The notes under the pieces: generated by a model
Seen by the model: the letters and a program-made list of their open reading frames with translations, nothing else
Told to the model about the DNA's origin: nothing
The model's database searches: none
Shown: positions 7,947 to 61,393 of the stretch, piece by piece
How the letters are laid out: every line of letters starts with the position of its first letter
Position numbering within the stretch: the first letter of the stretch is position 1
Program-made: the position numbers and the translations under genes
DNA from: a bacterium
GTDB lineage: Bacteria; UBA10199; 2-02-FULL-44-16; JAAZCA01
DNA length: 64,000 nt
Assembly: GCA_963674695.2 (NCBI GenBank)
Contig: CAXXGI010000001.1
Location: 320,001-384,000, forward strand
Direction of reading: 5' to 3'

Positions 7947-7973
7947 GCAACTTTTTCCCTGAATGTGCGACAA
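7947..7973 (+). promoter_or_regulatory. Recurrent sigma28-like motif, copy 1
   Basis: GCAACTT-N13-GCGACAA, 15 nt before ATG 7989. Confidence 0.65.
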
Positions 7974-7988
7974 GGGGAGTGGAGGGTT

Positions 7989-8948
7989 ATGGGAAATCTC
8001 ACCTGCACCAACGATGCTCGAACAGAACGACTCGCCGCGACGCTCGAGAGGGAGCATGCGGTTTCACGCCAAGCGATGGATGCGGGCGCACCGCGCCTTC
8101 ACATCGCCGACAACGGCAGCGCCATCAGCACCGAATGGATTGACGCCGGCGATGGGTGTTCGACCTATCAGGAAGTGCTGGGCCCCACCATCGACATCGC
8201 TACACGTAAAGCCCTCTTCGCTGGAGATATCGCGCTGCTTCAAACCCTGAAGAATGAGCATGGCCTCACCCTTCCCTGGATCATTCCGAACTCGGACACC
8301 GGCGAGATCCTCAACCAGGAGACCTGGACCGCCATCGCCCTCCAGGCCGAAGCGATCGCCCTGTCGGTCATCGACTCCGGCCTTGCCGTCGGCTCGTCGG
8401 AGTACCGACTCGAGTTGGGAAAACGACTCTTCGAAACCTTCATGCCCATCGAAGAACTGCGCATCGGAGGCATCGATCCACAGATGGGCGCCTTCCGACT
8501 CTATACGGCCTGCCTTGCCGCCGGGCTCCCCGCTCATTTCGTCTTCGTGCCCAATGGCCCGCGCGGAGCAAGCCTTTCCACGCACGTCGCGCTGGCCATC
8601 GAACTCGACGCCGACAGCGAGATCATCGCCGATCCGGCCTGGGGCGTCTTCGGGCTGTCAGGGCTGGAAACGATTCCGATCACATCGTTGCAGGCGATCT
8701 CGCGCTATGAAACCCATCGCGCGCTGATGTCGAAGAAGGACTCGCTCAAACGACTGGAACGCGCAATCACATGCGATCCGTTCAACGCCTCTGCCCACGC
8801 CTATCAGATGCACGCCGCCGTCGACAGCATCACCGATCCGCTCTGGCCCTTTCGCCGCCTCCATCGCTGGCAGATACAGTCCGACCGTGCCTTCTTCGAC
8901 GATCCAGACGCCGCACCGAAGGATGTCCCCGCCCCATTTGTTCGTTAA
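7989..8948 (+). CDS. Orphan with degenerate transglutaminase-like region and TPR-like helices
   Basis: GGAGG RBS before ATG 7989; LYTACLAAGLPA..V..., THVALAI, IADPAWG resemble the His/Asp part of the 61420 protein; no obvious catalytic Cys. Confidence 0.6.
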   Translation: MGNLTCTNDARTERLAATLEREHAVSRQAMDAGAPRLHIADNGSAISTEWIDAGDGCSTYQEVLGPTIDIATRKALFAGDIALLQTLKNEHGLTLPWIIPNSDTGEILNQETWTAIALQAEAIALSVIDSGLAVGSSEYRLELGKRLFETFMPIEELRIGGIDPQMGAFRLYTACLAAGLPAHFVFVPNGPRGASLSTHVALAIELDADSEIIADPAWGVFGLSGLETIPITSLQAISRYETHRALMSKKDSLKRLERAITCDPFNASAHAYQMHAAVDSITDPLWPFRRLHRWQIQSDRAFFDDPDAAPKDVPAPFVR

Positions 8949-8949
8949 C

Positions 8950-9084
8950 GAGAACCTGTCGGAAAAAGGGTTTTTGTTGTCATTCCCGCGAAGGCGGGAA
9001 TCTCGAAGTACTTGAATAATCGAGATTCCCGCTTTCGCGGGAATGACAACAATCGGTAAAATCGTCATTTCCCGACAGACTCTC
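8950..9084. mobile_element. MITE-like element carrying a dRS3/REP-like palindrome
   Basis: Outer imperfect IR GAGAACCTGTCGGAAAA / TTTCCCGACAGACTCTC; inner TTGTCATTCCCGCGAAGGCGGGAATC...GATTCCCGCTTTCGCGGGAATGACAA (8977-9049); between convergent genes. Confidence 0.65.
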
Positions 9085-9085
9085 A

Positions 9086-12000
9086 TTATCGTCTGAGGAT
9101 TGTCTTCAGATATGCTGCGCGTTCCTGCAGAAAGAGGATATAGCCGAGCGTGAATCGATAGGGATCCTCGCTCAATCCCTCGGCATAGCGCCGCTCGAAT
9201 GTGGCCCGATTGATGCGCTCGGCCTGTGCCGCCGTCGGCTCCATCTCGACCGCCATCATCGGATCGCCTATGCCGCCGAGCACCTGACGATCGACCACCT
9301 CATCGACTTTGTTCTCCAGAAGAAAGCGATCATACTCCTGCGAAAAGGGGAGATGCATCTGCGTCGGTTTCCACCCCTCGCCCACATCCGCCATATGCTG
9401 CTCGAATTCGCGATTGGCCCGATCGATCACCTCGCCATAGCGATCCTTTTCGCGTTGGAGAAGATGACTGCGCGTCGCACGCAAGGAAGTGAGTTTTTTG
9501 GCCGAATACTGCGGACTCATCTTCATCAGGGTACACCCGCGTGGATTCGACGGCGTGCGCAAGCCTTTCTCGACCCACCCCACATCCTGTTCCGGGCTCA
9601 AGCGGTTGAGAAACTTCAGTTCAAACTCCTGCCGTTCGATCTCCTTGGCCTGCGGGTCAATACCCTTGTATTCCGGCGCGTGCGCGTAGCGCACGATCTC
9701 GGCATAGGACTCATAGGCTGCGGTCAGATCCGCATAGGCCTGCTGCACACGTGCCACTTCAGGCACCGTCGCGTTGGAGGGAATGGCAGCTAAATCCAGA
9801 TGCCGCAGAGCTTCAATCGCCTCATCGTATTCGTGCATGGCACCCGCCAGCGCCTCCTTCCGCTCGGAAATCGTGTAGCGCGCCACCGCATACGCCTCGG
9901 CACGCGCGAGCCCCTCCATGATCAGAAATTCCGCGAACAATTGATAGGCGCCGCCGGGTTTGATCCCCTTGAGTTTGGTCACCGCCCCCATCGCGCGCGT
10001 GATATAGCGCGCACTCGTGAGCAACGCGATCGTATTGCCGAATCGTTTGAGATCGATCTTGCCGGTGCGGACGACCTCGATCGCCTCCACGGTGAGCAGC
10101 GCGCCCAGCGTCGATCCCAGGCGCAGCGCCCCTCCCCTCCAACCGGTGTAGGTCTTGCCCAACGCCGCCCGGTTGAATGCAAACCCCTTTGTCGTCTTGC
10201 GCAGGAGGTTCTTGTGTTCAAGCGCCACACGCATGCCGGTGTCGAAGGTCATCGCGCCCTTGGTCATCGCCGCCCAGGTGGTGACGATCGACGAATCGAT
10301 CCCTTCGAAGAGCACATCGGCGTCCCCCGTCGCGCCCGCGACGACGGCATTGACGAAGAGTTTGGAAGCGACCGCTGCCGTTCCGAATGCGCGTGCCCCG
10401 TGCGCGAGGCGATAGCCCGAACGATATCTCGCGCGCTCTTCAAACGAGGGGCCATCCACCCAGACGACCTTTTCACCGCTGGCCTTGGCCTGGTCGATCG
10501 CCCTCGGGAGCGTATCCTGCGTGAGCGGCAACAGGTCCGGCGTCGTGCCGGCAACTCCGCGATTGAGCTTGGCCACGCCGAACTGGACCTTCAACGTCGT
10601 CTCCGGCCGTTCGGTCGTTTCCCGTGGCTGTTCATCGAAGAGATAGAGTTCGTTGCCCTGGCCGCCCCCCTTGAGTCGATGCACGTGGAGACGCTTGATC
10701 GGCAGCTCCTCCAGAGCATTCACCTCATACCCCTTCGGCCTCACTCCAAACTCGCGATAGACGATCTCCTGAAACGCCGAATCATTATAGACCTTCTTGA
10801 TTGTCGTGCGATGGGCGAGCCTCGCCCCCGGCTTGGCCGGCTTGAAGATGACGCGCCCATCGTTGCGCACGCTATAGTGCACGCCGTTCCACTTTCCGCC
10901 CGGCATCGCCGTCTTTTCCGTATAGGCATAGGGCCTGTTCTCGTGCACGCGCTCGATCTCATCGGCCACCTCCGTGACGGTGGCGATCACCTGCGCCTTC
11001 GACATCGTCTCCTGCGCACGCACCTTGATGCGAAACTCGTCGCCCCCCTTCTGGCAGAAGACCTCGACATCGAGACCACGTGACTTGAACCCTTCGATCA
11101 ACCGGGCGTACAGTTTTCCAAAGACCGGATCATGCGGGCCATCCTGATAGACGGCCGAACTCATCGCAGCATTGGCCTTCCAGATCTCGGCCTCGATCAG
11201 ATATTCCTGGCCCGCCCCCTTGGACTGAGTCGTTCGCACATCGACCACCGACTTCTTCACCGCGACGAAGGAACCATCCTCATGCTGAAAGCGAAAGACA
11301 TGGAAGGCATCCTGGGCGCGCCCCGCGAAGCGCTCAGCCACCGGCATACGCGCCGGGTCGACCTCGGCCGGAGGGTGTTCGAGATAGCCGAGCAGCGCAC
11401 CCTTCGCGGCATGCAGTTGTAATTTCGTGTCCGAAGTCGGCGTCTCCCGATGCGCCTTCGCGGCGACATCGAATGCGGCATAGAGCTTCTCCACGGTCTC
11501 GGCGTGGCGTTTGACGAGACCATAGTAGTGCAACTCGCGATTGATATCGCCGCTCTCGAGACGCGTCTGATCGACGACATCCCTGCCATGCCAGAGGGGC
11601 TCATTGGGAAGCCGATCCGCCTCGGCGGATTTATGAATGTCAGGAACGGTCGTGCGAAACATCGAGAAGAGTTTGCGCGACGTCGACCAGGCCTTCTTCG
11701 CGGAGACCCCATTCCCGTCCGCGCGTCCATCGAGCACAAGCGCCTGGTTCGGATTGAATCGCTTGGAGGCGATGTCCTCCCCCTGATGCAAGCGCCCGAG
11801 AAATTCCATCGCCTTCTCATAGGCCGTCCCCTTTCGGCTGCCTGGTTCAGGCACATCTTTTGGATCGAGGACGAGCTCTTCATAATAGCCCGCCAGCGGC
11901 AGCGGCGCACCGCGCACGACCGCATCCCCATCGACGATGCGCTTGGCGTCGCGCTGCAGGCCCTGCATCGCTGCCTGGGCTTCAGGGAGTTCCACATCCA

Positions 12001-13320: not shown

Positions 13321-14394
13321 TCAGAGCGCGGCGTGGGCGTCACGAATGAGCCGACGCTCCTGGGAAACGGTGGGGAAGAGTCGTTCGATGCGCACGATGG
13401 CCTCACAGACAGCAGCGCTGGCGAAGACCCCATGCCGAAGAATCGAGCGGGCCAACGATCGCGCGCAGGCCTTGCGCACACGCCAGTTGTCATCGGAGAT
13501 CGCCGCGATGAGCGCCGCCTCGGATTCCGGGCTCGCCCAGAGCGGCAGCGCCTCGGCCACAACCTCGCGCGTCATCGCATCGGGATCCTGTTCGAGCATC
13601 GCGCAAACCACGATATTGGCGCGCGCCTCGGGAGAGAGGCGAAGCCCTCGCACGGCCGCCTGACGAATGAAGGGATTGCGCTCGTTGCGAACACGCGTTG
13701 TGCGCGAAAGTATTTTGAAGGCGCGATCGGCAATCTCGGGAGGAAAGTCGATCAGGTAACGCCCGAGGGAACGAACCGCCTCAGCGCGCACCCGAACATC
13801 GCTGTCATGCGTCGCACGCATAAGCACCGGCAGGGCATCACGGTGAGCGATGAAACCGAGGGCCGCTGCGAGGCCTGCGCGAAGACGCGCCGGCACATGC
13901 CGCTCGAGTGAGAGCAGGTCGATCATGATCGATGCCGCCTCCTGCACGCCCATCAATCCGAGCGCGCGCGCCGCCTTCTCGCGCACGCGTACCGAACGAT
14001 CATCGGTGAGCGATGCGATGAGCGAGGGATGGGCGCGCTCGTCGCCGATCTTCCAGAGAGCCCAAGCCGCCTCCTGCCGCACGCACTCGTCGGTGTCACT
14101 TGCCAGCGCAACCGTGAGCGGCACGACCGCCTCCGGGACCTTGACGCCATCCACATAGGCGATATCGCCGAATGCGCGCGCAGCGGCGACCCGCTCGTTC
14201 CGACGACCCGTGCGCAGCACAAGCAGCAGCCCGGCGATGCGCTTGCGTGTGGGCTTGCGATGATTCCGGGTCACGACGGGCAACACGCTCACACGCGCGG
14301 TCGCTTCGTCGTCGACTATCGGCGCAGAAGCCGTGGTCTTCTTCGGAGAACGATCCGGTGCCTCATGGACGAGGCTTTCGAAGGAGGTGGACAT
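13321..14394 (-). CDS. HEAT-repeat (PBS lyase-like) protein
   Basis: Repeats VRQEAAWALWKIGD, VREKAARALGLMG, VRAEAVRSLG, VRKACARSL; start 14394 or 14400. Confidence 0.9.
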   Translation of the reverse strand: MSTSFESLVHEAPDRSPKKTTASAPIVDDEATARVSVLPVVTRNHRKPTRKRIAGLLLVLRTGRRNERVAAARAFGDIAYVDGVKVPEAVVPLTVALASDTDECVRQEAAWALWKIGDERAHPSLIASLTDDRSVRVREKAARALGLMGVQEAASIMIDLLSLERHVPARLRAGLAAALGFIAHRDALPVLMRATHDSDVRVRAEAVRSLGRYLIDFPPEIADRAFKILSRTTRVRNERNPFIRQAAVRGLRLSPEARANIVVCAMLEQDPDAMTREVVAEALPLWASPESEAALIAAISDDNWRVRKACARSLARSILRHGVFASAAVCEAIVRIERLFPTVSQERRLIRDAHAAL

Positions 14395-14402
14395 GTACAT
14401 CC

Positions 14403-14429
14403 TTATCGCGGTTTGCTCAAAAAAGTTGC
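14403..14429 (-). promoter_or_regulatory. Recurrent sigma28-like motif, copy 2
   Basis: Minus strand GCAACTT-N13-GCGATAA, 8 nt before ATG 14394. Confidence 0.7.
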
Positions 14430-15781: not shown

Positions 15782-16525
15782 TCAGCTGTCGGCTTCTTCG
15801 TTTACGCACGGCTCCTCGCCGACGTAGAGGAGGCGTTGACAGCTGGGACAGATCTTCAAATCGACGCGGCGGAGCATTTCATTGTGGAGCTGCGGGGGAA
15901 TGCGCCGCGAACACCCCTGACAGACACCGCTACAGACGGGCACCAATACATCGCTATAGTGCCGACGAACAGCGTCGTATTTGCGCAGGATCATCTTATC
16001 GATCCCGGTCACGAGTTCTGGGCGACGCTTTTCATCGACCGCCATATGCTCACGGAGGGAGGCCTCTTCCGCCTCGATCTTCCCACGTGCCTCCGTGTAG
16101 GCAGATTCCTTATCGGCAAACTCACCCTCAAGTTGCGTGATTTTTTGCGTCAGCGACTCGATTTCTTCCATGCTCTGCAAAATGCGATCCTCGCGATCGC
16201 GATTGAGCTTCTTGCCGTCGGAAACCTCCTTGATCGCCGCCTGATACTCCTTGTTGGTCTTGATGGCGTAGAGCTTCGACTCACGGGTGCGCAGGGTTTC
16301 TGTCGACTCGGCCAGATTGGCCTCATCCTCCTTCTTCGTCGACTCCACCTCGACGAGCTTTGCGCGCGTCCCCTCCAGATCGGCCTTGACCGACTGATAG
16401 GACTGCTCCACATCGCGCATCTTCTCCGGCAGATCAGCGATCTGCTGGTTGAAACGCTTCAGATTGGTATCGATATCCTGCAATTCTCGAAGAAGGGTGA
16501 GTTGCTCGTCAAAAGGCGTGCCCAT
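15782..16525 (-). CDS. Coiled-coil C4-type zinc-ribbon protein (DUF164 / zf-RING_7)
   Basis: LRELQDID N-terminus, long coiled coil, CQGC...CPSCQRLLY; AGGAG RBS before ATG 16525. Confidence 0.92.
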   Translation of the reverse strand: MGTPFDEQLTLLRELQDIDTNLKRFNQQIADLPEKMRDVEQSYQSVKADLEGTRAKLVEVESTKKEDEANLAESTETLRTRESKLYAIKTNKEYQAAIKEVSDGKKLNRDREDRILQSMEEIESLTQKITQLEGEFADKESAYTEARGKIEAEEASLREHMAVDEKRRPELVTGIDKMILRKYDAVRRHYSDVLVPVCSGVCQGCSRRIPPQLHNEMLRRVDLKICPSCQRLLYVGEEPCVNEEADS

Positions 16526-16678
16526 CGATGCTCCTATCTTTTCAAGGGTTTGCCTATCTACGCCGAGTGCCATGCCTTGTCAATCCCCCAAAAGCACCGA
16601 TTTAGCACACATTTGCGCCCGCCATACAGAAACGCTTGCCATCGAGACGCCTGAAAGCTAAGAATCCCCCGCTTCATA

Positions 16679-35258: not shown

Positions 35259-36140
35259 TTAGCGGAAATGCGAAACGCCAAAACCCATCGGAAGAAATGC
35301 GTGTGGAAATCCAATCGATTCGAGATAGCCGTTGATGACAGAAACCATAAATTCACGGGGGATTATCTGCTCTGTCCAAACATATGGCCTTATTTCCGCA
35401 GGGAGATCGGCGCTTTCGTATTGGGTCATTTTCTCATCGGAGGACAACGCGCTCCATGTGTTATCAATCATCGGAAACAGATAACGCGCAATATTGCGCA
35501 ATTCATCTACAGATAGTGCAGCGGGAATAGCTTTGGCGGCATTGTCGTTCGCAACGATAAAATGCATCAGGGAGATCACACAGTCGGAATAGGTAGTGTT
35601 ATTCCTTGATATCTGCACCTTGTGCAACCATGTCAGATCCTTTTCGATGTCTTCCATCTCCTTCGAGAGGTAGTAAAGAATGAGCGCCGTTTCGATGAAT
35701 GCGTCCCCCAACAGCGTCAGGGCCATTCCATCATTGGGCTTCGATTTCGGCACGGATGGCAGCGAATGAGTCGATTGCACAAGCCTCACTATCGGGAGAC
35801 CTCGCAATGCACGAGAATGAACGGGCTCCAGAGATGCGGCTTTGGTGCCATCAATGTTCAGACGATAGGATGTCGCCTCTGGAATATATGACGATTGAAA
35901 ACGATCGACCCCCTTGATTTCAACACCCAGCTCATCGAGATATATTGCAGCGTCTCGTTCGAGGATCATTTCATTGAAGGGGGCCTCTTCAATCGTGTGC
36001 GTTACGATACCTCCCGGCAAGAGCGATACCGTGTGACGCAGCTCCGTCGGACCGAAGCTCTCCACCATTTCCGGACTACTCAGAAAGACAGCGGATGCCC
36101 CACTGATGCCAATGGTCGTCGGTGTGATAAACGGATTCAT
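35259..36140 (-). CDS. Orphan protein
   Basis: Long ORF, GGGA RBS, preceded by recurrent motif; ends FLPMGFGVSHFR. Confidence 0.65.
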   Translation of the reverse strand: MNPFITPTTIGISGASAVFLSSPEMVESFGPTELRHTVSLLPGGIVTHTIEEAPFNEMILERDAAIYLDELGVEIKGVDRFQSSYIPEATSYRLNIDGTKAASLEPVHSRALRGLPIVRLVQSTHSLPSVPKSKPNDGMALTLLGDAFIETALILYYLSKEMEDIEKDLTWLHKVQISRNNTTYSDCVISLMHFIVANDNAAKAIPAALSVDELRNIARYLFPMIDNTWSALSSDEKMTQYESADLPAEIRPYVWTEQIIPREFMVSVINGYLESIGFPHAFLPMGFGVSHFR

Positions 36141-36160: not shown

Positions 36161-36187
36161 GTATCGCCAATAGCACACAAAGGTTGC
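36161..36187 (-). promoter_or_regulatory. Recurrent sigma28-like motif, copy 3
   Basis: Minus strand GCAACCT-N13-GCGATAC. Confidence 0.6.
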
Positions 36188-36349: not shown

Positions 36350-36376
36350 GCAACTTATCCCTCGAAACGTCGATAC
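36350..36376 (+). promoter_or_regulatory. Recurrent sigma28-like motif, copy 4
   Basis: GCAACTT-N13-TCGATAC. Confidence 0.6.
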
Positions 36377-36436: not shown

Positions 36437-37798
36437 ATGTCGGAGGTGGCGCCGAACATCGGCCCGTTCACGCGGAAGCTGCCGGAGAAGGCAGCCAACG
36501 AACCGATCAATGCGATGGTTCGCGGGGCGCTGGCGAACGCCGTCGCGGCGGAACAAGCCAAACCGCATGCGTCGCGTGAAGCATACGTCGACGCCGTGAT
36601 CGACACCTTCTACCTCGAACTCGGCGCGGGTGCGCTGGGCGCCGTCATCGAGTTCAAGGCCCTCTCGCTCCCCGATGCATATGTCGGCCGCATGCCGCGC
36701 CGCGACAGCGCGCTGAAGTTCCTCGATCGCGCCGACTTTCGGGGATACGCAAATCCCGTCATCTTCAGCCCCATCCTGGGCCTGGCCTCCCGCGATGAAC
36801 ATCGCGTCTGCTACGTCGGCTCCGACAAGTTCGGCCACTTCATCCAGCAGGGGTACGACTATCACACCATCCTGCGTGCGATCGAACGCAAACGCCCCGG
36901 CTACGGACTGCTCTATGCACAGGCCTGGGGCGCATGGCTCGAAGGCGAAGAGCTCTCCGCCGAGGCAGTCGAGCGCTATCTCGCATCGCACGATCTGCCC
37001 GATAATGCCGCGAGCGTCGCGCAGGTTCAGCGCGAGCTGCACGCCTTTCTCACGCAGGACGATCTCATCTCGAGCTTGAGTCCCATGCCCGAGTTCGCCA
37101 AGGGCAACCGCTTCCTCAAGAGCCTGGCCCGAACCGTCGGCGTCCATCAGCGCGGCATCATGGGGCTCACCACCACCGGCATCTATTCCAACGCGGATCT
37201 CGCGGCCAATGAAGCGGGGCTGCGCTTCTATCTCGACCTCGAACGCGATCCGGAGAAACTGGCTGAACGCTTCGACATCGCCGATTACGCCGACTGTTCG
37301 TGGGACGAGGAGGTGCTCCCCTCGAAGTTTTCCCCGGAGGTCAAAGCGCGTATCGATGAAGCCGTGCGCGGAGAAAAACGCGCACACTTCGCCACGGGTC
37401 TGGCCTTCGGCTTCAACCTGCCGAACTATCAGTTCTCGCTCTCCACGCCGCTGGCCTACTACGCCTCGCTCGATGAAGACTACGAGATCCGCCTGCGCCT
37501 GGGCGCGTCGATCCCGCTGTCCGGAAACGAGAAGGCCTATGCCGAGGACAGCCAGCTCTTCACGGCGCTGGACGCAAGCGTGCGATTGACGGGACTCAAC
37601 TATCTCTATTTTTCGGGAGAGCTGGGGATCACGCCGCAGATCATATCGGATGATCCCGCGCGCGCGGTGCGCCCCGCCGTGGAGACGGGCTATGAGGTGA
37701 TGCTGGGCGGCTGGGGCTCGCTGCAGTTCGGCCTCAACTACGACATCATCAAGCAGCTCCCCAGCGCCGCGATCGGCGCCCTGCTCCTGTGGCGATAG
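36437..37798 (+). CDS. Orphan with DKFGHF motif and C-terminal beta-strand-rich domain
   Basis: GAGG RBS; VGSDKFGHF..GYDY, TTGIYSNADLAANEAG; alternating hydrophobic strands in last ~140 aa. Confidence 0.78.
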   Translation: MSEVAPNIGPFTRKLPEKAANEPINAMVRGALANAVAAEQAKPHASREAYVDAVIDTFYLELGAGALGAVIEFKALSLPDAYVGRMPRRDSALKFLDRADFRGYANPVIFSPILGLASRDEHRVCYVGSDKFGHFIQQGYDYHTILRAIERKRPGYGLLYAQAWGAWLEGEELSAEAVERYLASHDLPDNAASVAQVQRELHAFLTQDDLISSLSPMPEFAKGNRFLKSLARTVGVHQRGIMGLTTTGIYSNADLAANEAGLRFYLDLERDPEKLAERFDIADYADCSWDEEVLPSKFSPEVKARIDEAVRGEKRAHFATGLAFGFNLPNYQFSLSTPLAYYASLDEDYEIRLRLGASIPLSGNEKAYAEDSQLFTALDASVRLTGLNYLYFSGELGITPQIISDDPARAVRPAVETGYEVMLGGWGSLQFGLNYDIIKQLPSAAIGALLLWR

Positions 37799-37825
37799 CC
37801 CGCACGACATCGGGACGATTCAGTC

Positions 37826-39523
37826 ATGGCAGATATCCGACACATCGAGATCGAGGGCCATCGGTACCGGATCGATGAAAGCGATCCCTTCCTCCGCCGG
37901 ATCGTCAACCTGGTCGGCCCCCTCGACCGCGACGGCGATGGGCTCCTCACGGAGGAGGAGGTCCGAACCGGCCTGACCGCCGATCCCCGCGTGGAAACGG
38001 CCGTCGAGGCCGAGCTGGATCAGGCGCGCCGCGACCGCGACCGGCGGATGGACGACTCGAACCGACGCTTCGTCCCTGCCCCTGTTCGCGATACTGCGGA
38101 TGCGCTCGGGGCCCTCCTGGGCGACGCCGAACGCGCCCGCCGTCTGACGATCGCCGTTCCCGCCGGCAGCTTCGGCGCCTTCCCCGCGGAGCGCGTGAGG
38201 GAAATCCTCGCCGGACAACCGCCGCTCGCACTCCGCTCCCGCTCCCTCGGAGCGTACGCCGAAGAGGAAGACGGGATGCGACAGTTCTGCCAGGAGCACG
38301 ATTCCATCGAATGGTGCCACCTGCTCAACGATCGGTTCAGCACCATGTTCTCCTACCTGGAGGCCTACACCTCGCGGGAGATCTCTCCCCTGCTCGCCGA
38401 TCGCAATCCGTTCGACCTGTTCTCGGTGCCCGCAATGGTCATCCCCCTCGACGTCGGCAAAACGCCGCCGCTCCAGCGCGGGATGCCGCTGGCGACGATC
38501 GCCGAAGAGGGCGCGGCGGCCAGCAGGGCGCTCTATCTCTACGCCGACTCCGAAATGAAGATCGACGACATCGTGGGCTACATGAACACCATCCGCGCCG
38601 TGAGCATCACGATGCGGTTTGCCGCACCTGCGGCCTACGCCGAAAAATACGCGGACGCGTTCGACGAAGCCGCAGCGATCCTGTCCCGGTCGCATCCGAA
38701 CATCCATCCGAACAACCTGAAACTCATGCTGCTCTACCGCCTCTTTCGGGAATCGTTCGCGCTCGACGCCACCGACGTCTGGCAGGACATGGCGGCCTGC
38801 CGCTCGACGTCCTGCTCCACGCTCGAACGCTTTGAAGAAAAATTTCCGACTGTCGACGCGGGGTGGGCCGAATACACATGGCTGTCGGCGAGCCTTCTGA
38901 TCGGCAAGCAGCAGCAGGGGTTCGGGCCGATGCAGCTCATCCTGGGGCTGGCGCTGGAGGCCGCCTCGCACGAGGCCACCTGCGCCCGCTACCGCGGCGT
39001 GCTGACGGAGGAGGAACTCACCACCGAGGAGGGGGCGCTCCGGGCGCTGCTCGATCCCCGCAAGGCGGTCTTCTTCGCCGCCCTCATCTACGACTTCATC
39101 CTCACCCGCCTTCAGGAAACGACGTACCGCGATCCGCGCGTTATGGCGCCGAGCGATGCCTACCCCTTTCCCGTCTCGCCGAAAGCGGCACGCGAACTCG
39201 CCCTGATCGAATCGGCGCAGGTCCTCTCCGCGTTCCCCGAGGAAGCGCCGTATGCGAAGGAACGCATCATCTCCGGCGCATCGTCGTCCTACTGGGCCGA
39301 TTTCTTCTTCATCGGCGAGATCCTCGGCATCGAACCGGCCTTCCCCGAACTGCGGATGGTCACCGCACGCTACGACTTCCTCTCCCTGTTTCAGCCGGAG
39401 AGCGACCCGCGCCTTCGTACCATCCGCTCGCAGCCCAGGGTCGACATCCGCTTCCTCGCTCCGACCTCCAGAGCCGACGCGGACGCAGCAGCTTCGGCGC
39501 CTTCCCCTATCGCACGCCCATGA
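37826..39523 (+). CDS. Orphan with N-terminal EF-hand-like loop
   Basis: DRDGDGLLTEEE; GC3-rich codons; follows 36437 gene. Confidence 0.75.
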   Translation: MADIRHIEIEGHRYRIDESDPFLRRIVNLVGPLDRDGDGLLTEEEVRTGLTADPRVETAVEAELDQARRDRDRRMDDSNRRFVPAPVRDTADALGALLGDAERARRLTIAVPAGSFGAFPAERVREILAGQPPLALRSRSLGAYAEEEDGMRQFCQEHDSIEWCHLLNDRFSTMFSYLEAYTSREISPLLADRNPFDLFSVPAMVIPLDVGKTPPLQRGMPLATIAEEGAAASRALYLYADSEMKIDDIVGYMNTIRAVSITMRFAAPAAYAEKYADAFDEAAAILSRSHPNIHPNNLKLMLLYRLFRESFALDATDVWQDMAACRSTSCSTLERFEEKFPTVDAGWAEYTWLSASLLIGKQQQGFGPMQLILGLALEAASHEATCARYRGVLTEEELTTEEGALRALLDPRKAVFFAALIYDFILTRLQETTYRDPRVMAPSDAYPFPVSPKAARELALIESAQVLSAFPEEAPYAKERIISGASSSYWADFFFIGEILGIEPAFPELRMVTARYDFLSLFQPESDPRLRTIRSQPRVDIRFLAPTSRADADAAASAPSPIARP

Positions 39524-41108: not shown

Positions 41109-41135
41109 ACAACTTATTCGCGCTGCGACCGATGA
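41109..41135 (+). promoter_or_regulatory. Recurrent sigma28-like motif, copy 5
   Basis: ACAACTT-N13-CCGATGA, 25 nt before ATG 41161. Confidence 0.55.
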
Positions 41136-41160: not shown

Positions 41161-43407
41161 ATGACGACCAGGATTCATGACAGCCGCGAACAGGTAACAT
41201 CGCTGACGCAGCGGGCTCTGCCCAATGCTGAACGCGAGCAGGCACTGGCCATGGAGCCGATGAGGCAGGGGCCGTACATCGACCTCCGATCGATCGAACG
41301 GGGAATCGCGAAGAACAAACACCTCCTCGGGCATTATGCACTCAAACACGGGCTCGTTCGCGGCGTCCTCAAGGAGTTCAAAAACAAGGGACATCTCTGG
41401 CAGATCGCGGATGTCGCCCGCGCGCTGGGCATCCACCCCTCCATCCTCTTCTGGCTCACCAAAGGGGAGGAGATATCATCATCCTTTCAGACAAAACCGC
41501 TCCTCCTACGCGATTGGGGGCATCCGCCTCGAACGGTCCCGATCGGCGCCGTCGAAATTCCCCCGGCTTTTTCGAACCTCTTCGTTCAGATCGATGAAGC
41601 ACTGCTCAAGGTTCACCATCAACCGCTGATCCGAAAAACGGATGATAAAATACGGCACGGATGGTTCTATACCTATGCCTTCTTCCGACGCGAAAACCCA
41701 CCCCTCATGGGTGCATTCGATGAACGGCGTTTCAAGAAAAAGATCCTGCGCCCCATCGCCGAAACGCTTGGGCCGGATGATCTGAATCTCATCCCGAACG
41801 CCAGCGTCGATGCCATCGTGCAGGGGCTCAAGATCTTCTGCGGCTATTATTTCGATGCGCGTTATGGTTTTCTCTATGACCGCAATCGCAACCTCGTGAT
41901 CGGACCGAACGACCTTGGGCTTACGCTCCTCTTCGATCAGGACGGCATTCCGCAGCCCTATCGCTCGATCGCGCACTATACCGACGATGCCTCACTCGAA
42001 CCGATCGGCGTTCCTCAAAAGACGGGGCTCGTCCCGTTCCTGGATCAGTTCACCGAACGCTATGGCTTTCCGGGAGAGAAACGGATGGATTTCTTCGAGC
42101 GCCATGGCGCCAGCAAACGAACAACCAAAAATGCCTTTAGCGAACTCAATTCCAATTTCGGTGCACTGAACGCGCTCGTCCATTCAGTTGGTGGAAACCC
42201 GACCCCCTTCTATTGGGCGCGCTATGGGCGCCAGGTGCGCGATGTGCTTGGACCCGATGCCATCACGATGGTCATGACGAGCGATCACGCCAAACGAAGA
42301 ACCCACAGCAACAGAAGCCCGAGCGGTGTCATCTCGATGCCACGCGGTTTCTGTGACCCGACGAGCGAAATCTTTCACATGCTGCGAACAGCCTGGGATA
42401 ATAAACGCATCTTTCGCATGCGCGATTCAAGGGCGTATCGTGCCGTTGGAAGATGGAAGGACAATCCCCTGAGCTATCATCCCCAAGAGCATACAACCTA
42501 CGATAAGGTATCGCGTTTTCTCTTCGACGAATTTCGACTGGAGGGGGTAACGAGCCTCAAGGATGTGGAACGGGCCCTTCGCATCGCGTGGAACTGGAAT
42601 CGTATCCGCGACTACCTCCCCGTCTTCTCCGCGCAGCGGGCGCAAGCCTTCGGGGCAAGCGGCCTCGGCGACCTCTGGTTCGAGGGGGAAGGCATTCCGG
42701 TCAACACGTCGATTGTCTTCGACGATCATTTGGAACAGACCAACCTCGAACGCAGCTGGCGCTTTTCCACGCAGCACCAATTGCTGCTCGAACGGGATTT
42801 CCGCACCCGGCTCTGCTCTCTTCGGGAAAACCGTTTGACCTCCTATCCGGTCCGCGCCGTAGAGATGCCCGGCGGAATGAAGGGCGTGAGAAAACTCTTC
42901 AACCTCCTCAACGGTCTCACGCGCCGAGCCAAACCGGTGCGCGCCCTCCTGGAAGGGAGGGGAAATGAGCTCTCCGAGTGGAAGCTCCTCGAAACGACCG
43001 CCCTCCTCACCAAGCACCCACTCCGAACGCAGGGTCCGCGCAAACAGCTCCCGCGACAGCTCTGGATGGGCCCGCTGCTGCTCATGGCGAACCATGACAG
43101 CATCCTCGATCATACGCCGATCTACGATCCGTCCGCCAACACCTATGAGATCCCCCCCGCGCTCGAAGGACGCTTCAAACCCATCGAGAGCTTGCACGAC
43201 AGCGGTCGTGCCCAGAATCCACAGATCGTCGTCAACGACATCGACCAACAGCAGTGGATGGATCTCAGCGAAACAGCGATAGCAACAGAGGAGATGATCA
43301 TTCCGGAGGGCGCGCTCTTGCCCACCGATGACGTTTGGCTTTGGATGGAGGACCCCACCTTCGCCCCGCTCTATGAGATCCTCAACCTTCCGATGCGCCT
43401 GCGATAA
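41161..43407 (+). CDS. Large basic orphan with HTH-like segments and acidic tail
   Basis: IADVARALGIHPSILFWL HTH-like; ends ...YEILNLPMRLR; start moved to avoid overlap with the divergent gene. Confidence 0.72.
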   Translation: MTTRIHDSREQVTSLTQRALPNAEREQALAMEPMRQGPYIDLRSIERGIAKNKHLLGHYALKHGLVRGVLKEFKNKGHLWQIADVARALGIHPSILFWLTKGEEISSSFQTKPLLLRDWGHPPRTVPIGAVEIPPAFSNLFVQIDEALLKVHHQPLIRKTDDKIRHGWFYTYAFFRRENPPLMGAFDERRFKKKILRPIAETLGPDDLNLIPNASVDAIVQGLKIFCGYYFDARYGFLYDRNRNLVIGPNDLGLTLLFDQDGIPQPYRSIAHYTDDASLEPIGVPQKTGLVPFLDQFTERYGFPGEKRMDFFERHGASKRTTKNAFSELNSNFGALNALVHSVGGNPTPFYWARYGRQVRDVLGPDAITMVMTSDHAKRRTHSNRSPSGVISMPRGFCDPTSEIFHMLRTAWDNKRIFRMRDSRAYRAVGRWKDNPLSYHPQEHTTYDKVSRFLFDEFRLEGVTSLKDVERALRIAWNWNRIRDYLPVFSAQRAQAFGASGLGDLWFEGEGIPVNTSIVFDDHLEQTNLERSWRFSTQHQLLLERDFRTRLCSLRENRLTSYPVRAVEMPGGMKGVRKLFNLLNGLTRRAKPVRALLEGRGNELSEWKLLETTALLTKHPLRTQGPRKQLPRQLWMGPLLLMANHDSILDHTPIYDPSANTYEIPPALEGRFKPIESLHDSGRAQNPQIVVNDIDQQQWMDLSETAIATEEMIIPEGALLPTDDVWLWMEDPTFAPLYEILNLPMRLR

Positions 43408-43457: not shown

Positions 43458-44987
43458 TTACCCGCTGCGACCGGAATCGCGCGTGGCCTGACGCAGCCAG
43501 GGGTGTTCGAGCAGGGCATCGAGCTGATTCGGCGTCATGCGCCAACGCCAGTTGCCGTGCACCGTCGAGGGGTGGTTGATCGCCGCCTCGGCGCCGAGGT
43601 TCAGCACGTCCTGCACCGGCGCGATCGCCATGAACGCAGGAGAGTTCAAGCCCATCTCCACCATGCGCCGCGCCACATTCTGCTCCGTCGTGCGGGAATC
43701 GTAATGCTGATCGAAGCTCACGCGCGTTTCGCGATCGATGGAGCCAAACCAGGCACGCGTCGGGACGTTGTCATGCGTACCCGTATAGACGACTGCTTTT
43801 GCGCTCAGGTTTTCCAGGGCATGCGGATTATCTGCGCCGCCCCCGAAGCCATACTGCAACACCCGCATGCCGGGGATGCCGAAACGCTCCATGATCGGCG
43901 CCAAGCTCTGCATCTCATTTCCCAGGTCCTCAGCGATGAGCGAGAGATCCGGAAAGGTCGCAAACGCCGATTTTAGGAATCGATCGGCAGGCGCATCGAC
44001 CCACTTTCCGTTCTCCGCCGTCGCATCCGATCCCGGCACATCCCAAAAACGGACGAGCCCCTGAAAGTGATCGAGGCGCACGTGATCGAAGAGCTCGCGG
44101 TTGCGGCCGAGTCGATTCAACCACCAGGAGAACCTATCCTTTTCATGCTGATCCCACCGATAGGTCGGGTGGCCCCAACGCTGGCCGGTCTTGCTGAAGG
44201 CGTCCGGCGGCGTTCCGGAAACGGTGTAGACCCACCCCTCGTCGCTCATATGAAAGAGGGAGCGGGATGCCCAGGCATCGGCGCTGTTGCCCTGAACGTA
44301 GAGCGGCACATCGCCGAAGAGGCGAACGCGGTTCCCGGCGCAATGCTCGCGCAGGCGAGCCCACTGATCGGAAAAGACAAACTGCAACATCCGCTCGCGC
44401 GCAATCTCCTTCGACAGCTTCCGTGACCATTTCTCGATCACACTCGAATCGCGGCGAACGAGCCCTTTGGGCCACTCCTGCCATGCGCGGTTCTTGAAAT
44501 GGCGTCGAAAGACCGCGAAGCGGGCATAATCTTCCAGCCATACCTGATTGCCTTGGCAGAAATCCTCAAAACGGGGATCGCCCTTCAACCCCTTGGTCTC
44601 CTTGAGGAGGCGATCGAAGAGACGCACGCGCGACTTGGCGACAAGATCGTAGTCGATCGTCCCCTGTGCAAACGCCGGCATCTTCTTGAGCACTTTGGGG
44701 GAAAGATACCCATCCTTCACGAGCAGCTCGGGACTGATCAGAGAGGTCTCGCCGGCAAAGGCCGACATCGCGCTGTAGGGACAGTTCCCGGTTCCCGCAT
44801 CGGTCGGGTTGACGGGAAGGACCTGCCAGACCTGCTGATCGTTTTCCGCGAGCGCATCGGCAAAGTCGTAGGCCGCTGGACCCAAATCACCGATTCCAAA
44901 ATCGGATGGGAGGGATGTGACCGGCATGAGCACACCGGACGAAGGCTGAATTCCAGGAGCCGCAATCGGCAAGGCAGCAGACATCAT
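43458..44987 (-). CDS. malQ: 4-alpha-glucanotransferase (GH77)
   Basis: SGVLMPVTSLP..GIGDLG, WQVLP, PPDAFS.TGQRWG.P, RLDHF, AEDLG, YTGTHDN, NWRWRM. Confidence 0.97.
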   Translation of the reverse strand: MMSAALPIAAPGIQPSSGVLMPVTSLPSDFGIGDLGPAAYDFADALAENDQQVWQVLPVNPTDAGTGNCPYSAMSAFAGETSLISPELLVKDGYLSPKVLKKMPAFAQGTIDYDLVAKSRVRLFDRLLKETKGLKGDPRFEDFCQGNQVWLEDYARFAVFRRHFKNRAWQEWPKGLVRRDSSVIEKWSRKLSKEIARERMLQFVFSDQWARLREHCAGNRVRLFGDVPLYVQGNSADAWASRSLFHMSDEGWVYTVSGTPPDAFSKTGQRWGHPTYRWDQHEKDRFSWWLNRLGRNRELFDHVRLDHFQGLVRFWDVPGSDATAENGKWVDAPADRFLKSAFATFPDLSLIAEDLGNEMQSLAPIMERFGIPGMRVLQYGFGGGADNPHALENLSAKAVVYTGTHDNVPTRAWFGSIDRETRVSFDQHYDSRTTEQNVARRMVEMGLNSPAFMAIAPVQDVLNLGAEAAINHPSTVHGNWRWRMTPNQLDALLEHPWLRQATRDSGRSG

Positions 44988-45038: not shown

Positions 45039-45065
45039 TTATCGCGCGGGATGAAGGAAAGTTGC
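45039..45065 (-). promoter_or_regulatory. Recurrent sigma28-like motif, copy 6
   Basis: Minus strand GCAACTT-N13-GCGATAA upstream of malQ. Confidence 0.7.
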
Positions 45066-57207: not shown

Positions 57208-57582
57208 ATGCCCAGCGCCCTGATCGTCAGCCCTGACCCCCAGACCACCCGCCTCTTCGAACTCGGCCTTGAACTGCGCGGCTGGACGGTCGAAACCGCC
57301 GCTCAATTGCCCTCAACAGCAGTTCGCCAAGAAGCCGATATCCTCCTGGTCGACCTGGCGGACATCGATCACGAACAGTGGGAGTCCTGCCCGACGGTGC
57401 GCCAGCGCGCTGAGGACCCGCGCACGACGGTGCTCATCCTTCCCCGCGGACTCTCCCCCGACCACGTGCCACGTGAATGTCAGCTGGCGACGATGTTCGT
57501 GCACCGACCATTCGATTTCTGGAACGTGGTCGACCAGATCGATCAACTCGGCCGTGGAAAGAGCACGCTGCCGGCGGGATAA
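57208..57582 (+). CDS. Atypical receiver-domain protein
   Basis: ALIVSPD, DILLVDL, FVHRPF; acidic pocket and Lys degenerate; TTGCCA-N17-TACAGT 6 nt upstream of ATG. Confidence 0.7.
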   Translation: MPSALIVSPDPQTTRLFELGLELRGWTVETAAQLPSTAVRQEADILLVDLADIDHEQWESCPTVRQRAEDPRTTVLILPRGLSPDHVPRECQLATMFVHRPFDFWNVVDQIDQLGRGKSTLPAG

Positions 57583-57612
57583 AAAAAGGCCCGCCGCTTT
57601 CGCGACGGACCC

Positions 57613-57774
57613 AGACTGCTGACAAAATTATCTCATACGGTCAACCAAGGTTTGTCATTCCCGCGCAGGCGGGAATCTCGCTTGTAATGGTACATCGAGA
57701 TCCCCGCTGGAGCCTACCCTCGAATGATTGAATCGGGGGCGGGGATGACAAAAACACAGGTTTGTCATCAACCT
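57613..57774. mobile_element. MITE-like element with internal dRS3/REP-like palindrome
   Basis: Ends AGACTGCTGACAAA / TTTGTCATCAACCT shared with 60340-60471; inner GTCATTCCCGCGCAGGCGGGAATC...GCGGGGATGAC. Confidence 0.72.
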
Positions 57775-57803
57775 CGGTCTTTTTCTTTTTCGCCCTATCG
57801 AAA

Positions 57804-58841: not shown

Positions 58842-58884
58842 AATACGCCTCCCTCTTTCGGACGCCTACCTCCGCGCCCATTTG

Positions 58885-60261
58885 TCATGGTTGTGAAACC
58901 GGTTGCTGTTGTGCAGACGATACGGTCGCTTTCTGCAGAAACTCGATCGCCCGCTTGAGTTGATAGTCTTCCCCCTCTTTCTGAACCGGCGGCTTCGGCG
59001 CGACCTCTTCCCCTTCGTCCACCGAGGCGCTCGGCGCCGCCTTCGCCACACCCTTCTTCGCTGAAGCCTTCGGCTTCGGCTGATCCTTGGGAACCACGAT
59101 ATCCGGAACGACTCCCAGGTCCTGGATGAATCGACCGCTCGGAGTCTGATACTTCGCGATCGTGAGTTTGAGCCCTGAGCCGTCGTCGAGGTCGATCACG
59201 GTCTGCACCGATCCCTTGCCGAAGGAGGTGGTTCCCATGATGGTCGCACGCTTGCTGTCCTGCAGGGCGCCGGCCACGATCTCAGAGGCGGAGGCCGACC
59301 CTCGATCAATGAGAACGACCACCGGATAGTCCGGCTCGGTCTCCTCCGCATGCGCCTCATGCCGATCGATCTCACGACCACGACTGGCCGTCGTGACGAT
59401 CACGCCCTCGTCCATAAAGAGATCGGAGACCACCACGGCCTGGTCGAGCAACCCCCCCGGATTGTGGCGCAGATCGAGGATGAGGCCATCGAGCGCATTC
59501 TCTTTGCGCAACTGCTTGAGCGCACGACGCAGCGCGCGCCCCGTTCCCTGCTGAAAGTTGCTGATGCTCACATACCCGAAACGATCGCCGACCACCTCGG
59601 CCTTGACGCTGGGCACCTTGATGATGCTGCGCTTGAGCGAAACGTCGAAAGGCTTGTGCCCCTCCCGCCCAATGGTGAGCGTAATGCGGCTACCGCGCTT
59701 GCCGCGCATGAGCGAAACCGCCTGGGAGAGCATCATGTTCTTGGTGCCCTTGCCGTCGATGCGCAGAATCACATCGCCCGCCTGGATCCCCTCGCGCGCA
59801 GCGGGCGAGCCCTTGATGGGAGAGACGACCGTGAGGTATCCCTTACGCACCGTCACCTCGATGCCGATGCCATCGAAGCGCCCGCGCGTATCCACTTTCA
59901 ATTCACGATAGATCTCGGGCGACATATAGACGCTGTGCGGGTCGAGCGTGCCGAGCATCCCCTGCATGGCACCCTGGATGAGTTCGTCCTCGTCAATCTC
60001 GTCGGCGTAGTTTTCCTCGACGTAATGGAGCACCTTGCTGAACGTGTGCAGGGCCTCAAATCCCTTCTCGGTCAGCGCCTGCGCCCGCATCGGCGCTCCG
60101 AGCACCACCAGGATGAGAAAGAGACACGCCCCGTGCAGGAATAGACGCCTGTGGCTGGAAGACTGCGTGCGGCCCACGAAAACCCCTTGTTCCGGAGATG
60201 AACGAAAAACAAAAGCGGATACCAGCAACCAAGTTCTTACAATGGCGCCCTTTTCTCGCAT
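58885..60261 (-). CDS. ctpA: Carboxyl-terminal processing protease (S41), start uncertain
   Basis: LDPHS, PDZ GIGIEV, DLRHNPGGLL, SASASEIVAGALQD, FGKGSVQ. Confidence 0.95.
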   Translation of the reverse strand: MREKGAIVRTWLLVSAFVFRSSPEQGVFVGRTQSSSHRRLFLHGACLFLILVVLGAPMRAQALTEKGFEALHTFSKVLHYVEENYADEIDEDELIQGAMQGMLGTLDPHSVYMSPEIYRELKVDTRGRFDGIGIEVTVRKGYLTVVSPIKGSPAAREGIQAGDVILRIDGKGTKNMMLSQAVSLMRGKRGSRITLTIGREGHKPFDVSLKRSIIKVPSVKAEVVGDRFGYVSISNFQQGTGRALRRALKQLRKENALDGLILDLRHNPGGLLDQAVVVSDLFMDEGVIVTTASRGREIDRHEAHAEETEPDYPVVVLIDRGSASASEIVAGALQDSKRATIMGTTSFGKGSVQTVIDLDDGSGLKLTIAKYQTPSGRFIQDLGVVPDIVVPKDQPKPKASAKKGVAKAAPSASVDEGEEVAPKPPVQKEGEDYQLKRAIEFLQKATVSSAQQQPVSQP

Positions 60262-60288
60262 ACACCGCCAGAAAGGTCAAAGCTGAAA

Positions 60289-60517
60289 ACAGTTGAAAGT
60301 TGAACGTTAAAAGTTGAAAGAAAGGGGGTTTCCCCTTTCAGACCGCTGACAAAGTCCCAACGATGTCATTCCGAGTGAGCCGAAAGGCGAGTCGAGGAAT
60401 CTCATGAGATCCTTCGACTCGTCCGTTCCGGCCTCGCTCAGGATGACAACAGCAGGGTTTGTCATCAACCTCGAAGGGGTTTCCCCTTTCAACTTTAAAC
60501 TTCCAACTTTCAACTGT
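60289..60517. repeat. Inverted heptamer arrays (AAGTTGA)n/(TCAACTT)n forming a long hairpin
   Basis: ACAGTTGAAAGTTGAACGTTAAAAGTTGAAAG (60289-60320) nearly complementary to 60486-60517. Confidence 0.85.
60340..60471. mobile_element. MITE-like element with internal REP-like palindrome and flanking direct repeat
   Basis: AGACCGCTGACAAA...TTTGTCATCAACCT; inner TGTCATTCCGAGTGAG...CGCTCAGGATGACA; GGGGTTTCCCCTTTC on both sides. Confidence 0.75.
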
Positions 60518-60518
60518 C

Positions 60519-61319
60519 TTACAGGTCCACCCGGGTCACCTGCGGCAGATCCCCTTCGAGAAAGCGATGCGCGATGACCTCGAAGCGAGCGGGCAGGTCG
60601 GTGACATAGATCTGACATCCCGCGGGGGAAGCGCCATCTCCGCTCAATCCGCGCTCATCGAGCAGCGCCTTCAGGGCCAGGGCGGTGGTCTCGGCGGAAT
60701 CAACGACGGTGATCCCCTCGCCCAGTTCCCGCTCGATCGTGGAGGCCAGGAGCGGATAGTGCGTACATCCGAGGATGAGCACATCGATCCCCTCGGCGCG
60801 CACGCCGTCGAGATAGCGATGCACGATGGACTCGGTGATCTCACCACCGAGCCACCCCTCTTCGATGAGCGGCACGAAAAGCGGACAAGCGCGACTGACA
60901 ACCCGCACGCCGGGATTGAGCTCGCGCAGAGCAGCGCCATAGGCGTTGCTCGAAATCGTTCCGGCCGTCCCGATCACGCCGATGCTCCCCCCGCGGGTCG
61001 CTGCAAGCGCCGCGCGAGCACCGGGCTCAACGACACCGATGACCGGAACCTCGAGCTCGCGCGCAAGTGCGGGCAGGGCATAGGCGGAGGCCGTATTGCA
61101 GGCGACCACCACCGCGCGCACACCGCGATCGACGAGAAAATGCGAGCATTCGCGCGCATAGCGCACGACCGTCTCGGCCGACTTGGTCCCATAGGGGACG
61201 CGCGCCGTATCGCCCAGATAGAGGAGCGACTCCTGCGGCAGATGCCGGCGAATGGCGGCAAAAACCGTCAAACCGCCGATACCGGAGTCGAAGATGCCGA
61301 TGGGACCGGAAGCGACCAT
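60519..61319 (-). CDS. murI: Glutamate racemase
   Basis: GIFDSGIGGLTV, DTARVPYG, ACNTAS, LGCTHYP. Confidence 0.97.
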   Translation of the reverse strand: MVASGPIGIFDSGIGGLTVFAAIRRHLPQESLLYLGDTARVPYGTKSAETVVRYARECSHFLVDRGVRAVVVACNTASAYALPALARELEVPVIGVVEPGARAALAATRGGSIGVIGTAGTISSNAYGAALRELNPGVRVVSRACPLFVPLIEEGWLGGEITESIVHRYLDGVRAEGIDVLILGCTHYPLLASTIERELGEGITVVDSAETTALALKALLDERGLSGDGASPAGCQIYVTDLPARFEVIAHRFLEGDLPQVTRVDL

Positions 61320-61366
61320 GCGCGGCGCTATAGCGCAGCATCCCCCGGAGGGCCAGTAAAAAGGGG

Positions 61367-61393
61367 GCAACTTTTGGGAGCGATATGCGATAA
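61367..61393 (+). promoter_or_regulatory. Recurrent sigma28-like motif, copy 7
   Basis: GCAACTT-N13-GCGATAA upstream of GTG 61420. Confidence 0.7.

Follow-up and report, generated by a model that had tools for sequence, protein, structure and literature searches.

Sigma factors of the FliA family are held in check by FlgM, an anti-sigma factor (RsiG in the case of WhiG), and the canonical promoter consensus of sigma-28 is TAAAGTTT-N11-GCCGATAA. A different sigma factor, HrpL of Pseudomonas syringae, is encoded within a secretion cluster. Here we analyse a window of 64,000 nucleotides (nt) of bacterial DNA, G000:C1:320001-384000 (genome, contig and positions, the form used below for all coordinates outside it), where G000 is a 3.03-Mb genome in three contigs with a 100% complete rating. 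The initial annotation of this window had noticed a two-block promoter motif, written GCAACTT-N13-BCGATAA (B being G, C or T), and had proposed that a lineage-specific sigma-28-family factor reads it to run a non-flagellar regulon. That proposal is supported by the comparative evidence assembled below, namely the placement and spacing of the motif, the existence of the sigma gene and an elimination carried out in two relatives (G023 and G081), and we put at about 0.8 the probability that the motif is read by a divergent sigma-28 (FliA/WhiG-family) factor encoded at G000:C3:8530-9399, where it lies among the genes of a non-flagellar type III secretion system.

In Bdellovibrio bacteriovorus, the sequence TTAAG-N16-CCGATA is present in 92 of 140 mapped attack-phase promoters, and FliA has been proposed as a global regulator (PMC3627812). 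The FliA regulon there comprises surface proteins, proteases and many uncharacterised proteins, as does the one predicted here (PMC3627812). Bdellovibrio is flagellated, however, and its FliA drives flagellar genes too, from promoters with a canonical -35 box, whereas the motif studied here has a GCAAC-type -35, the sigma gene lies in an injectisome-type cluster, and the genome has no flagellin or rod genes. The sigma-28-family factor of Chlamydia trachomatis likewise belongs to a non-flagellated bearer of a type III secretion system, where it serves a stage-specific programme, but chromatin immunoprecipitation sequencing (ChIP-seq) found only two bound promoters, hctB and tsp, compared with about 190 predicted here (PMC12282069). 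In P. syringae, a single promoter box, the hrp box of HrpL, drives the secretion machinery, effectors and a variable set of other genes (PMC3879358). HrpL is an extracytoplasmic function (ECF) sigma factor with a different box, whereas the sigma factor described here is of group 3 and FliA/WhiG-like.

Count, spacing and placement of the motif

Within the window, the strict pattern GCAACTT-N13-BCGATAA has four matches against 0.02 expected, and the looser pattern CAACYT-N14-CGAY has eight against 0.65 expected, a number that none of 100 shuffles reached. The spacer is identical in all eight sites, and a start codon lies 2-60 nt downstream of seven of them. Across the genome, the gap between the typed words GCAACTT and CGATAA is 14 nt in 33 cases, 15 nt in eight, 16 nt in 15 and 17 nt in one, and gaps of 8-13 or 18-21 nt do not occur at all. 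The 76 seed sites share an extended consensus of an A-tract, aCGCAACTTTT, about ten unconserved bases and then GCCGATAA; the genome-wide consensus is AAAAAnnaCGCAACTTTT-N10-GCCGATAA. A two-block weight matrix gave 224 sites at a threshold of at least 16 bits, and the -10 matrix over these sites is G C C G A T A A. With the threshold set to at least 20 bits, the scan returned 196 sites in the genome and five in a third-order Markov copy of it; at 22 bits or more, the counts were 185 and zero.

The great majority of the 196 sites (167) lie just upstream of a gene on the same strand. Sites that are intergenic and at most 300 nt upstream of a same-strand gene number 127, and another 40 fall within the 5' extension of the longest open reading frame (ORF), where the true start codon is probably downstream of the site. 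A further 22 sites lie further upstream of genes, most of them, we think, before a gene that the crude gene caller missed, and seven are deep within a gene. The main spacer is used at 148 sites, a spacer longer by 1 nt at 23 and by 2 nt at 20, with five sites having some other length. The fixed spacing seen in the window holds genome-wide, and the motif is not equally common inside genes or in reverse orientation; variable spacing and equal frequency were two of the outcomes that the initial annotation had named as refuting it. Counting from the last base of the -10 box, the first start codon in the ORF downstream is most often reached after either 5-10 nt or 20-50 nt, the distances forming a separate peak in each range. 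A start codon falls 4-11 nt past the box at 35 sites, and in 22 of these it is ATG. Judged by its count, spacing and position, the motif is a genuine promoter signal of which this uncultured bacterium makes use about 190 times, and its regulon would take in roughly 190 promoters, or about one gene in 11 by crude gene calls.

With positions counted relative to the -10 box, the motif can be written (-34)GCAACTTT(-27)-N11-(-15)GCCGATAA(-8). In the fliC promoter of Pseudomonas aeruginosa, TCTAAAG spans positions -36 to -30 and GCCGATAA positions -15 to -8, and the latter sequence is quoted in the same source as the sigma-28 -10 consensus (PMC12784957). Relative to a canonical sigma-28 promoter, the motif therefore has the same -10 box with its extended GC, and the same 11-nt gap between two 8-base elements, but its -35 element differs at three of eight positions (T to G, A to C and G to C). 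The element GCAACTTT is not a canonical -35 box, sharing only AA and TTT with TAAA(GTTT). Both parts of the original description, in which the downstream box resembles the sigma-28/FliA -10 element and the upstream box is not the canonical TAAA, agree with this comparison.

The motif is absent upstream of all 44 stable RNA genes (43 tRNA genes searched within 150 nt and the 16S gene within 300 nt). An exact TTGACA is found upstream of 11 of these 44 genes, against two for the reversed sequence, three for its reverse complement and about 0.6 expected from genome frequency, and the 16S leader carries TTGACA-N17-TAGAAC. The motif is distinct from the housekeeping promoter, and the earlier remark that it was not seen before housekeeping genes holds for the rRNA and tRNA genes, which use TTGACA. 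A strict sigma-70 pattern (TTGACA with at most one mismatch, N16-18, TANNNT) occurs in 75 of 1235 upstream regions against 33 when reversed, and at four of the 44 stable RNA genes; so narrow a definition does not serve to estimate how large the sigma-70 regulon is.

These contrasts bear on an alternative, which is that the boxes are not a sigma factor site but the operator of a regulator acting with RpoD, or else a dispersed repeat. The one point in its favour is indirect: some spacer-16 sites contain GATAAT, which is near the sigma-70 -10. In spacer-14 sites the base that follows CGATAA is not a conserved T. The motif has no TTGACA-type -35 beside it, whereas the stable RNA genes have one. 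Its orientation and its distance from start codons are promoter-like and the sequence of its spacer is unconserved, and for these reasons we reject a dispersed repeat and regard the alternative as a whole as very improbable.

The sigma factor and its type III secretion cluster

G000 has seven genes of the sigma-70 family, encoding RpoD, an RpoH-like factor, three proteins of ECF size, a sigma factor of 923 amino acids (aa) and a 289-aa protein. Those that enter the argument by position are as follows.

G000:C3:8530-9399, outside the window: candidate sigma factor of 289 aa, FliA/WhiG-like
G000:C3:147921-150692: 923-aa sigma factor with regions 2-4 and an N-terminal extension of about 690 aa belonging to no known family; a 31.6-bit motif site lies 7 nt before its start codon
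G000:C1:31327-31905: ECF gene, 121 nt downstream of an SLT gene that has a 32-bit motif site

A candidate for the sigma-28-family gene that the initial annotation postulated is present. The best NCBIfam match of the 289-aa protein is TIGR02479 (FliA_WhiG; E=2e-38, 132.4 bits), with residues 57-267 aligning to positions 1-219 of the 224 in the model, and among solved structures its seven closest relatives are without exception WhiG or FliA proteins. The protein has a group 3 build, with regions 2 (PF04542), 3 and 4 (PF08281) and without region 1.1.

The assignment of the motif to this protein comes from two relatives with few sigma factors. In G023, which is 97% complete and has 52 strict sites, PF04542 finds only RpoD and the FliA-like sigma, and PF08281 finds only the FliA-like sigma. 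In G081, which is 96% complete and has 17 strict sites, PF04542 again finds only RpoD and the FliA-like sigma, and PF08281 finds the latter together with one weak, sub-threshold match in a 121-aa frame. Because these genomes have only RpoD and the FliA-like sigma, and RpoD is assigned to the TTGACA promoters, the FliA-like sigma is left as the probable reader of the motif.

Region 4.2 touches bases of the -35 box through S224 and Q228 in the P. aeruginosa structure, where R97 contacts the extended -10 box (PMC12784957). The region 4.2 helix reads SKSWTSRLH here and SESRVSQLH in P. aeruginosa. Compared with canonical FliA, the sigma factor keeps the equivalents of D66 and R97, but K, W and R replace E223, R225 and Q228, a replacement seen in all 14 aligned cluster-linked sequences of the phylum; moreover, no FlgM was found, with PF04316 giving no match in the 100%-complete G000. 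We propose that the -10 box GCCGATAA, with its extended GC, would be read as it is by canonical sigma-28, and that the -35 box (a)CGCAACTTT, which replaces TAAAGTTT, would be read by the re-specified region 4.2 helix. The upstream A-tract is probably a UP element. Transcription is predicted to start about 7-8 nt past CGATAA, which would leave a subset of the targets leaderless.

The sigma gene lies on contig C3 in the order: orphan at 4428, TPR chaperone-like gene, SctJ, orphan at 7680-8168, sigma, 165-aa orphan, FliG-like gene, SctL, SctN, FliJ-like gene, SctQ, FliO-like gene, SctR and SctS. Motif sites of 27.4 and 23.7 bits lie upstream of the orphans at 4428 and 7680-8168, respectively, and the start of the 165-aa orphan overlaps the stop codon of the sigma gene. 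SctR scores above its cut-off, SctN passes the SctN cut-off and also a FliI cut-off, and SctJ, SctL, SctQ and SctS are the best or second-best matches. Three further components are listed here.

G000:C3:9988-11052: FliG-like gene (PF14841, PF01706)
G000:C3:16558-16893: FliO-like gene (TIGR03500, just under its cut-off)
G000:C1:140901-143066: SctV (TIGR01399, 793.7 bits, above the hrcV cut-off of 692)

A 21.7-bit motif site precedes an orphan just downstream of SctV, and G000 also encodes three secretins. Neither flagellin (PF00669) nor rod/hook domains (PF00460) had a match in G000, which correspondingly offers no late flagellar targets. By gene content, the system qualifies as a non-flagellar type III secretion system (injectisome), having core export and ring parts without flagellin, rod or hook. 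The non-flagellar character first proposed for the programme agrees with the lack of flagellin, rod/hook or FlgM matches in G000 and with the position of the sigma gene inside this cluster.

The FliG-like and FliO-like genes lie inside an otherwise injectisome-type cluster, which hints at a secretion system keeping flagellar features. Paired GC-rich hairpin-like repeats (G000:C3:8227-8307) occupy part of the 362 nt that separate the sigma gene from the orphan upstream of it, and the corresponding gap in relatives is about 500-1000 nt. A conserved 141-aa protein encoded just upstream of the sigma gene has no match in Pfam at E<=0.1 or in the protein atlas.

This arrangement is widespread in the phylum, for which we examined 93 genomes, all of one class and spanning 24 families. 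None of them lacks the strict motif, which has 3-74 matches in each compared with 0-2 in a backward-read control, and a sigma factor of the 289-aa type is present in 91 of the 93 and in all 63 of the high-quality genomes, at 50-76% identity. An FHIPEP (SctV) gene occurs in 91 of the 93 too, in many cases sharing a contig with the sigma gene. The order SctJ, orphan, sigma, orphan, FliG-like, SctL, SctN is kept, within the reach of each locus, in 18 of 19 loci from metagenome-assembled genome records of relatives, and the exception is a 40%-identical record labelled Myxococcota. The Myxococcota-labelled metagenome-assembled genome, whose sigma is 40% identical, has seven motif matches versus three in the control, with no clear enrichment. 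In 11 of the 19 loci, the site before the orphan upstream of the sigma gene is kept, together with its unusual 16-nt spacer.

Flagellin genes occur in five phylum members tested (among G002, G083, G063, G071 and G079). A second FliA-like gene, 27-29% identical and with E, R and Q retained, occurs in three genomes, in two of which it adjoins a second FHIPEP gene. Upstream of six flagellin genes, inspected by eye and without statistics, we mostly saw TAAAG/TTAAG and CCGTT-type boxes, not GCAAC/CGATAA, and these observations suggest that the two sigma paralogues are insulated from each other. The canonical pattern TAAA-N15-GCCGATA was not enriched in the five flagellated members, with 1-5 matches versus 0-5 in the control.

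Several points weigh against assigning the motif to the FliA-like sigma. Nearly every genome of the phylum has both the motif and the sigma, which leaves their joint presence without discriminating power, and the 132.4 bits of the 289-aa protein are below the curated FliA_WhiG cut-off of 189.6 bits. Sites with the longer spacers (15/16) have a stronger -10 box (CTGCCGATAATA) and are without the A-tract, unlike spacer-14 sites, a difference that is compatible with two readers in genomes with more sigma factors. The gene calls on which placement was scored come from a crude home-made caller. Two of the targets in the window also vary among relatives: the motif is absent upstream of four of four orthologues of malQ and of a second malQ copy in G000, and is absent in both orthologues found of a 453-aa orphan. 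Since neither promoter is conserved, the content of the regulon appears to be fluid. Finally, ECF promoters have an AAC-type -35 and a CG-type -10 set 16 nt apart, and this box pair and spacing fit the motif if GCAAC is taken as the -35 and CGA as the -10; a group 4 (ECF) sigma would then be the reader, and a 32-bit site does precede the SLT gene after which the ECF gene at C1:31327-31905 comes.

The three ECF-size genes of G000 supply candidates for such a role. Matches to the ECF at C1:31327-31905, however, are found in only 18 of the 93 genomes at E<=1e-10, and identity to it exceeds 40% in just three genomes besides G000. The 8-base -10 box GCCGATAA is the sigma-28 consensus, and the motif-rich genomes G023 and G081 have no ECF by PF04542 or PF08281. 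As the motif occurs in these two genomes with no cognate ECF, we reject an ECF reader and consider it very unlikely. It is likewise very unlikely that the motif is read by the 923-aa sigma or the RpoH-like sigma: the former has regions 2-4, weak matches to FliA models and a strong site before its own gene, but its best matches are RpoD-type models, no such gene is found by PF04542 in G023 or G081, and the RpoH-like gene is missing from both as well, so that the 923-aa sigma is rejected on its absence from genomes that keep the motif. The FliA-like sigma encoded in the secretion cluster thus remains the reader that we favour.

The eight sites in the window and their targets

The seven motif copies of the initial annotation were all found where it had placed them, and an eighth (16110-16136, minus strand), absent from its list, matches the consensus exactly. 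The consensus as it had been written, GCAACTT-N13-BCGATAA, is exact for three of those seven (14403-14429 and 45039-45065 on the minus strand and 61367-61393 on the plus strand), while the other four deviate by one or two bases, as given with each site below.

7947..7973, plus strand: promoter site GCAACTT-N13-GCGACAA (deviating in CGACAA), 32.1 bits; start codon 15 nt downstream
7989..8945, plus strand: its target, a protein of 319 aa for which Pfam gives no family even at E<=0.1
14403..14429, minus strand: promoter site, exact consensus, 34.0 bits; ATGs 2 and 8 nt past the -10 box, a leaderless-type layout kept in relatives
13324..14400, minus strand: its target, a HEAT-repeat protein (PF13646, 113.8 bits)
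16110..16136, minus strand: the eighth site, exact consensus, 34.1 bits, inside a CT398-like gene
15785..16570, minus strand: CT398/Zn-ribbon coiled-coil protein of 262 aa, containing the eighth site (PF24481, 33.5 bits; PF02591, 29.8 bits)
36161..36187, minus strand: promoter site GCAACCT...GCGATAC (deviating in GCAACCT and CGATAC), 25.8 bits; start codon 20 nt downstream
35262..36140, minus strand: its target, a 293-aa orphan with no Pfam family
36350..36376, plus strand: promoter site GCAACTT...TCGATAC (deviating in CGATAC), 29.6 bits; start codon 60 nt downstream
36437..39520, plus strand: two-gene orphan unit (453 aa and 565 aa), neither product reaching the cut-off of a Pfam family
41109..41135, plus strand: promoter site ACAACTT...CCGATGA (deviating in ACAACTT and CGATGA), 27.0 bits; start codon 25 nt downstream
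41161..43404, plus strand: its target, a 748-aa orphan with no Pfam family
45039..45065, minus strand: promoter site, exact consensus, 33.2 bits; start codon 51 nt downstream
43461..44987, minus strand: its target, malQ, encoding 4-alpha-glucanotransferase (PF02446, 487.7 bits)
61367..61393, plus strand: promoter site, exact consensus, 32.8 bits; start codon 26 nt downstream
61420..62514, plus strand: its target, a 365-aa protein with a weak Transglut_core match (17.4 bits, below the cut-off of 23)
G000:C3:780688-782136, outside the window: second malQ copy, 41% identical, with no motif site nearby

Among these targets, the HEAT gene has the motif upstream, at 19.9 bits or more, in nine of the ten orthologue loci scanned, the tenth (L157) having none on the strand of the gene. 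An ATG follows the -10 box at a distance of about 8 nt in this genome and in most orthologues (loci L147-L154), and this suggests a conserved leaderless mRNA. In this genome malQ, which had been named as a target, has an exact site 51 nt before its start codon, but the promoter is not conserved in relatives. The initial annotation had also counted two transglutaminase-like targets; only one target has a weak, sub-threshold match (the 17.4 bits listed above), and beyond this the description was not confirmed.

The eighth site, inside the CT398-like gene, points toward two downstream genes, a 100-aa orphan and an RNase H-like one, for which it may act as a promoter internal to the operon-like row. 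CT398, a chlamydial member of the family to which the surrounding gene belongs, binds sigma-54 and type III secretion components. A low-GC stretch of the window at about 17-35 kb (43-53% GC versus about 59%) corresponds to the island from which the motif had been reported to be absent, and it indeed has just two matrix matches, both sub-threshold, of 19.2 and 16.2 bits.

Regulon content and its meaning

To describe the regulon as a whole, we compared 192 of 194 first downstream ORFs with Pfam at E<=1e-5. A family was lacking for 140 of the 192 (73%; 64 of 98 and 76 of 94 in two batches), compared with 31 (28%) of 110 random non-target genes of the same loci, a control set that has three duplicate entries and in which several of the orphans are operon mates of targets (Fisher p=5e-14 for the excess). 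The picture of a regulon of orphans drawn in the initial annotation therefore stands for most of the targets, while some, such as the HEAT gene and malQ, do have families.

Those targets with recognizable domains include proteases (five Peptidase_S8, two S41, and one each of C25, M15 and S66), cell-wall and envelope proteins (two SLT, LysM, an AmiA-like protein and two OmpA), proteins with repeat or adhesion-type domains (TSP3, RHS, PKD, VWA and HEAT), signalling proteins (GGDEF, two PilZ and three histidine-kinase ATPases), glycogen enzymes (GH77 malQ, alpha-amylase and starch synthase), and SET and serpin families. The 923-aa sigma is also among the targets and may form the second tier of a cascade. 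Twenty targets exceed 1000 aa. A crude heuristic for signal peptides, based on N-terminal hydrophobicity, picked out 30 of 194 targets versus 474 of 1959 other genes, and it is not relied on here. The predicted regulon thus spans some of the secretion-cluster genes, a further sigma factor, proteases, cell-wall hydrolases, giant and cyclic di-GMP proteins, glycogen enzymes and, above all, lineage-specific orphans.

Three giant genes are clustered at G000:C1:243881-280366, with ORFs of about 3,200-3,770 aa and one motif site each. The first 1200 residues of each, which is the part that was scanned, have no Pfam family.

From gene content alone, we infer that the programme serves host or prey interaction. 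Going further, and with low confidence, we can imagine that throughout this uncultured phylum the sigma factor is a sigma-28 paralogue retained, together with the FliG-like, FliO-like and FliJ-like genes, from the injectisome's flagellar ancestors, and that it acts as master switch for a programme coupled to secretion. A substrate that the type III machinery exports would keep the sigma factor restrained for as long as the machine is idle, and contact with host or prey would then turn on the roughly 190 promoters. The 141-aa protein encoded just upstream of the sigma gene, itself motif-driven, would be a candidate for such an exported anti-sigma factor, by analogy with FlgM. In Bordetella, the anti-sigma factor BtrA is described as needing a type III chaperone for its secretion (PMC10732220).

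Large non-flagellar sigma-28 regulons are known from Bdellovibrio, and the principle is not new. In the open-access literature, our coverage of which was limited, we found no description of this motif or of a sigma-28 gene inside an injectisome cluster. The pairing of three helix substitutions with three base changes, in a phylum some of whose members also have a canonical FliA paralogue, would be a natural case of re-specification of the sigma-28 -35 element, and the result bears on the descent of the injectisome and of its regulation from the flagellum. For a phylum known only from metagenomes, the motif provides a handle on regulation that needs nothing but sequence, and it offers a means of drawing up lists of candidate secreted or stage-specific proteins across 93 species-level genomes. 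If the secretion-coupled switch is true, the promoter box would amount to a near-complete catalogue of the effectors of organisms that have never been grown.

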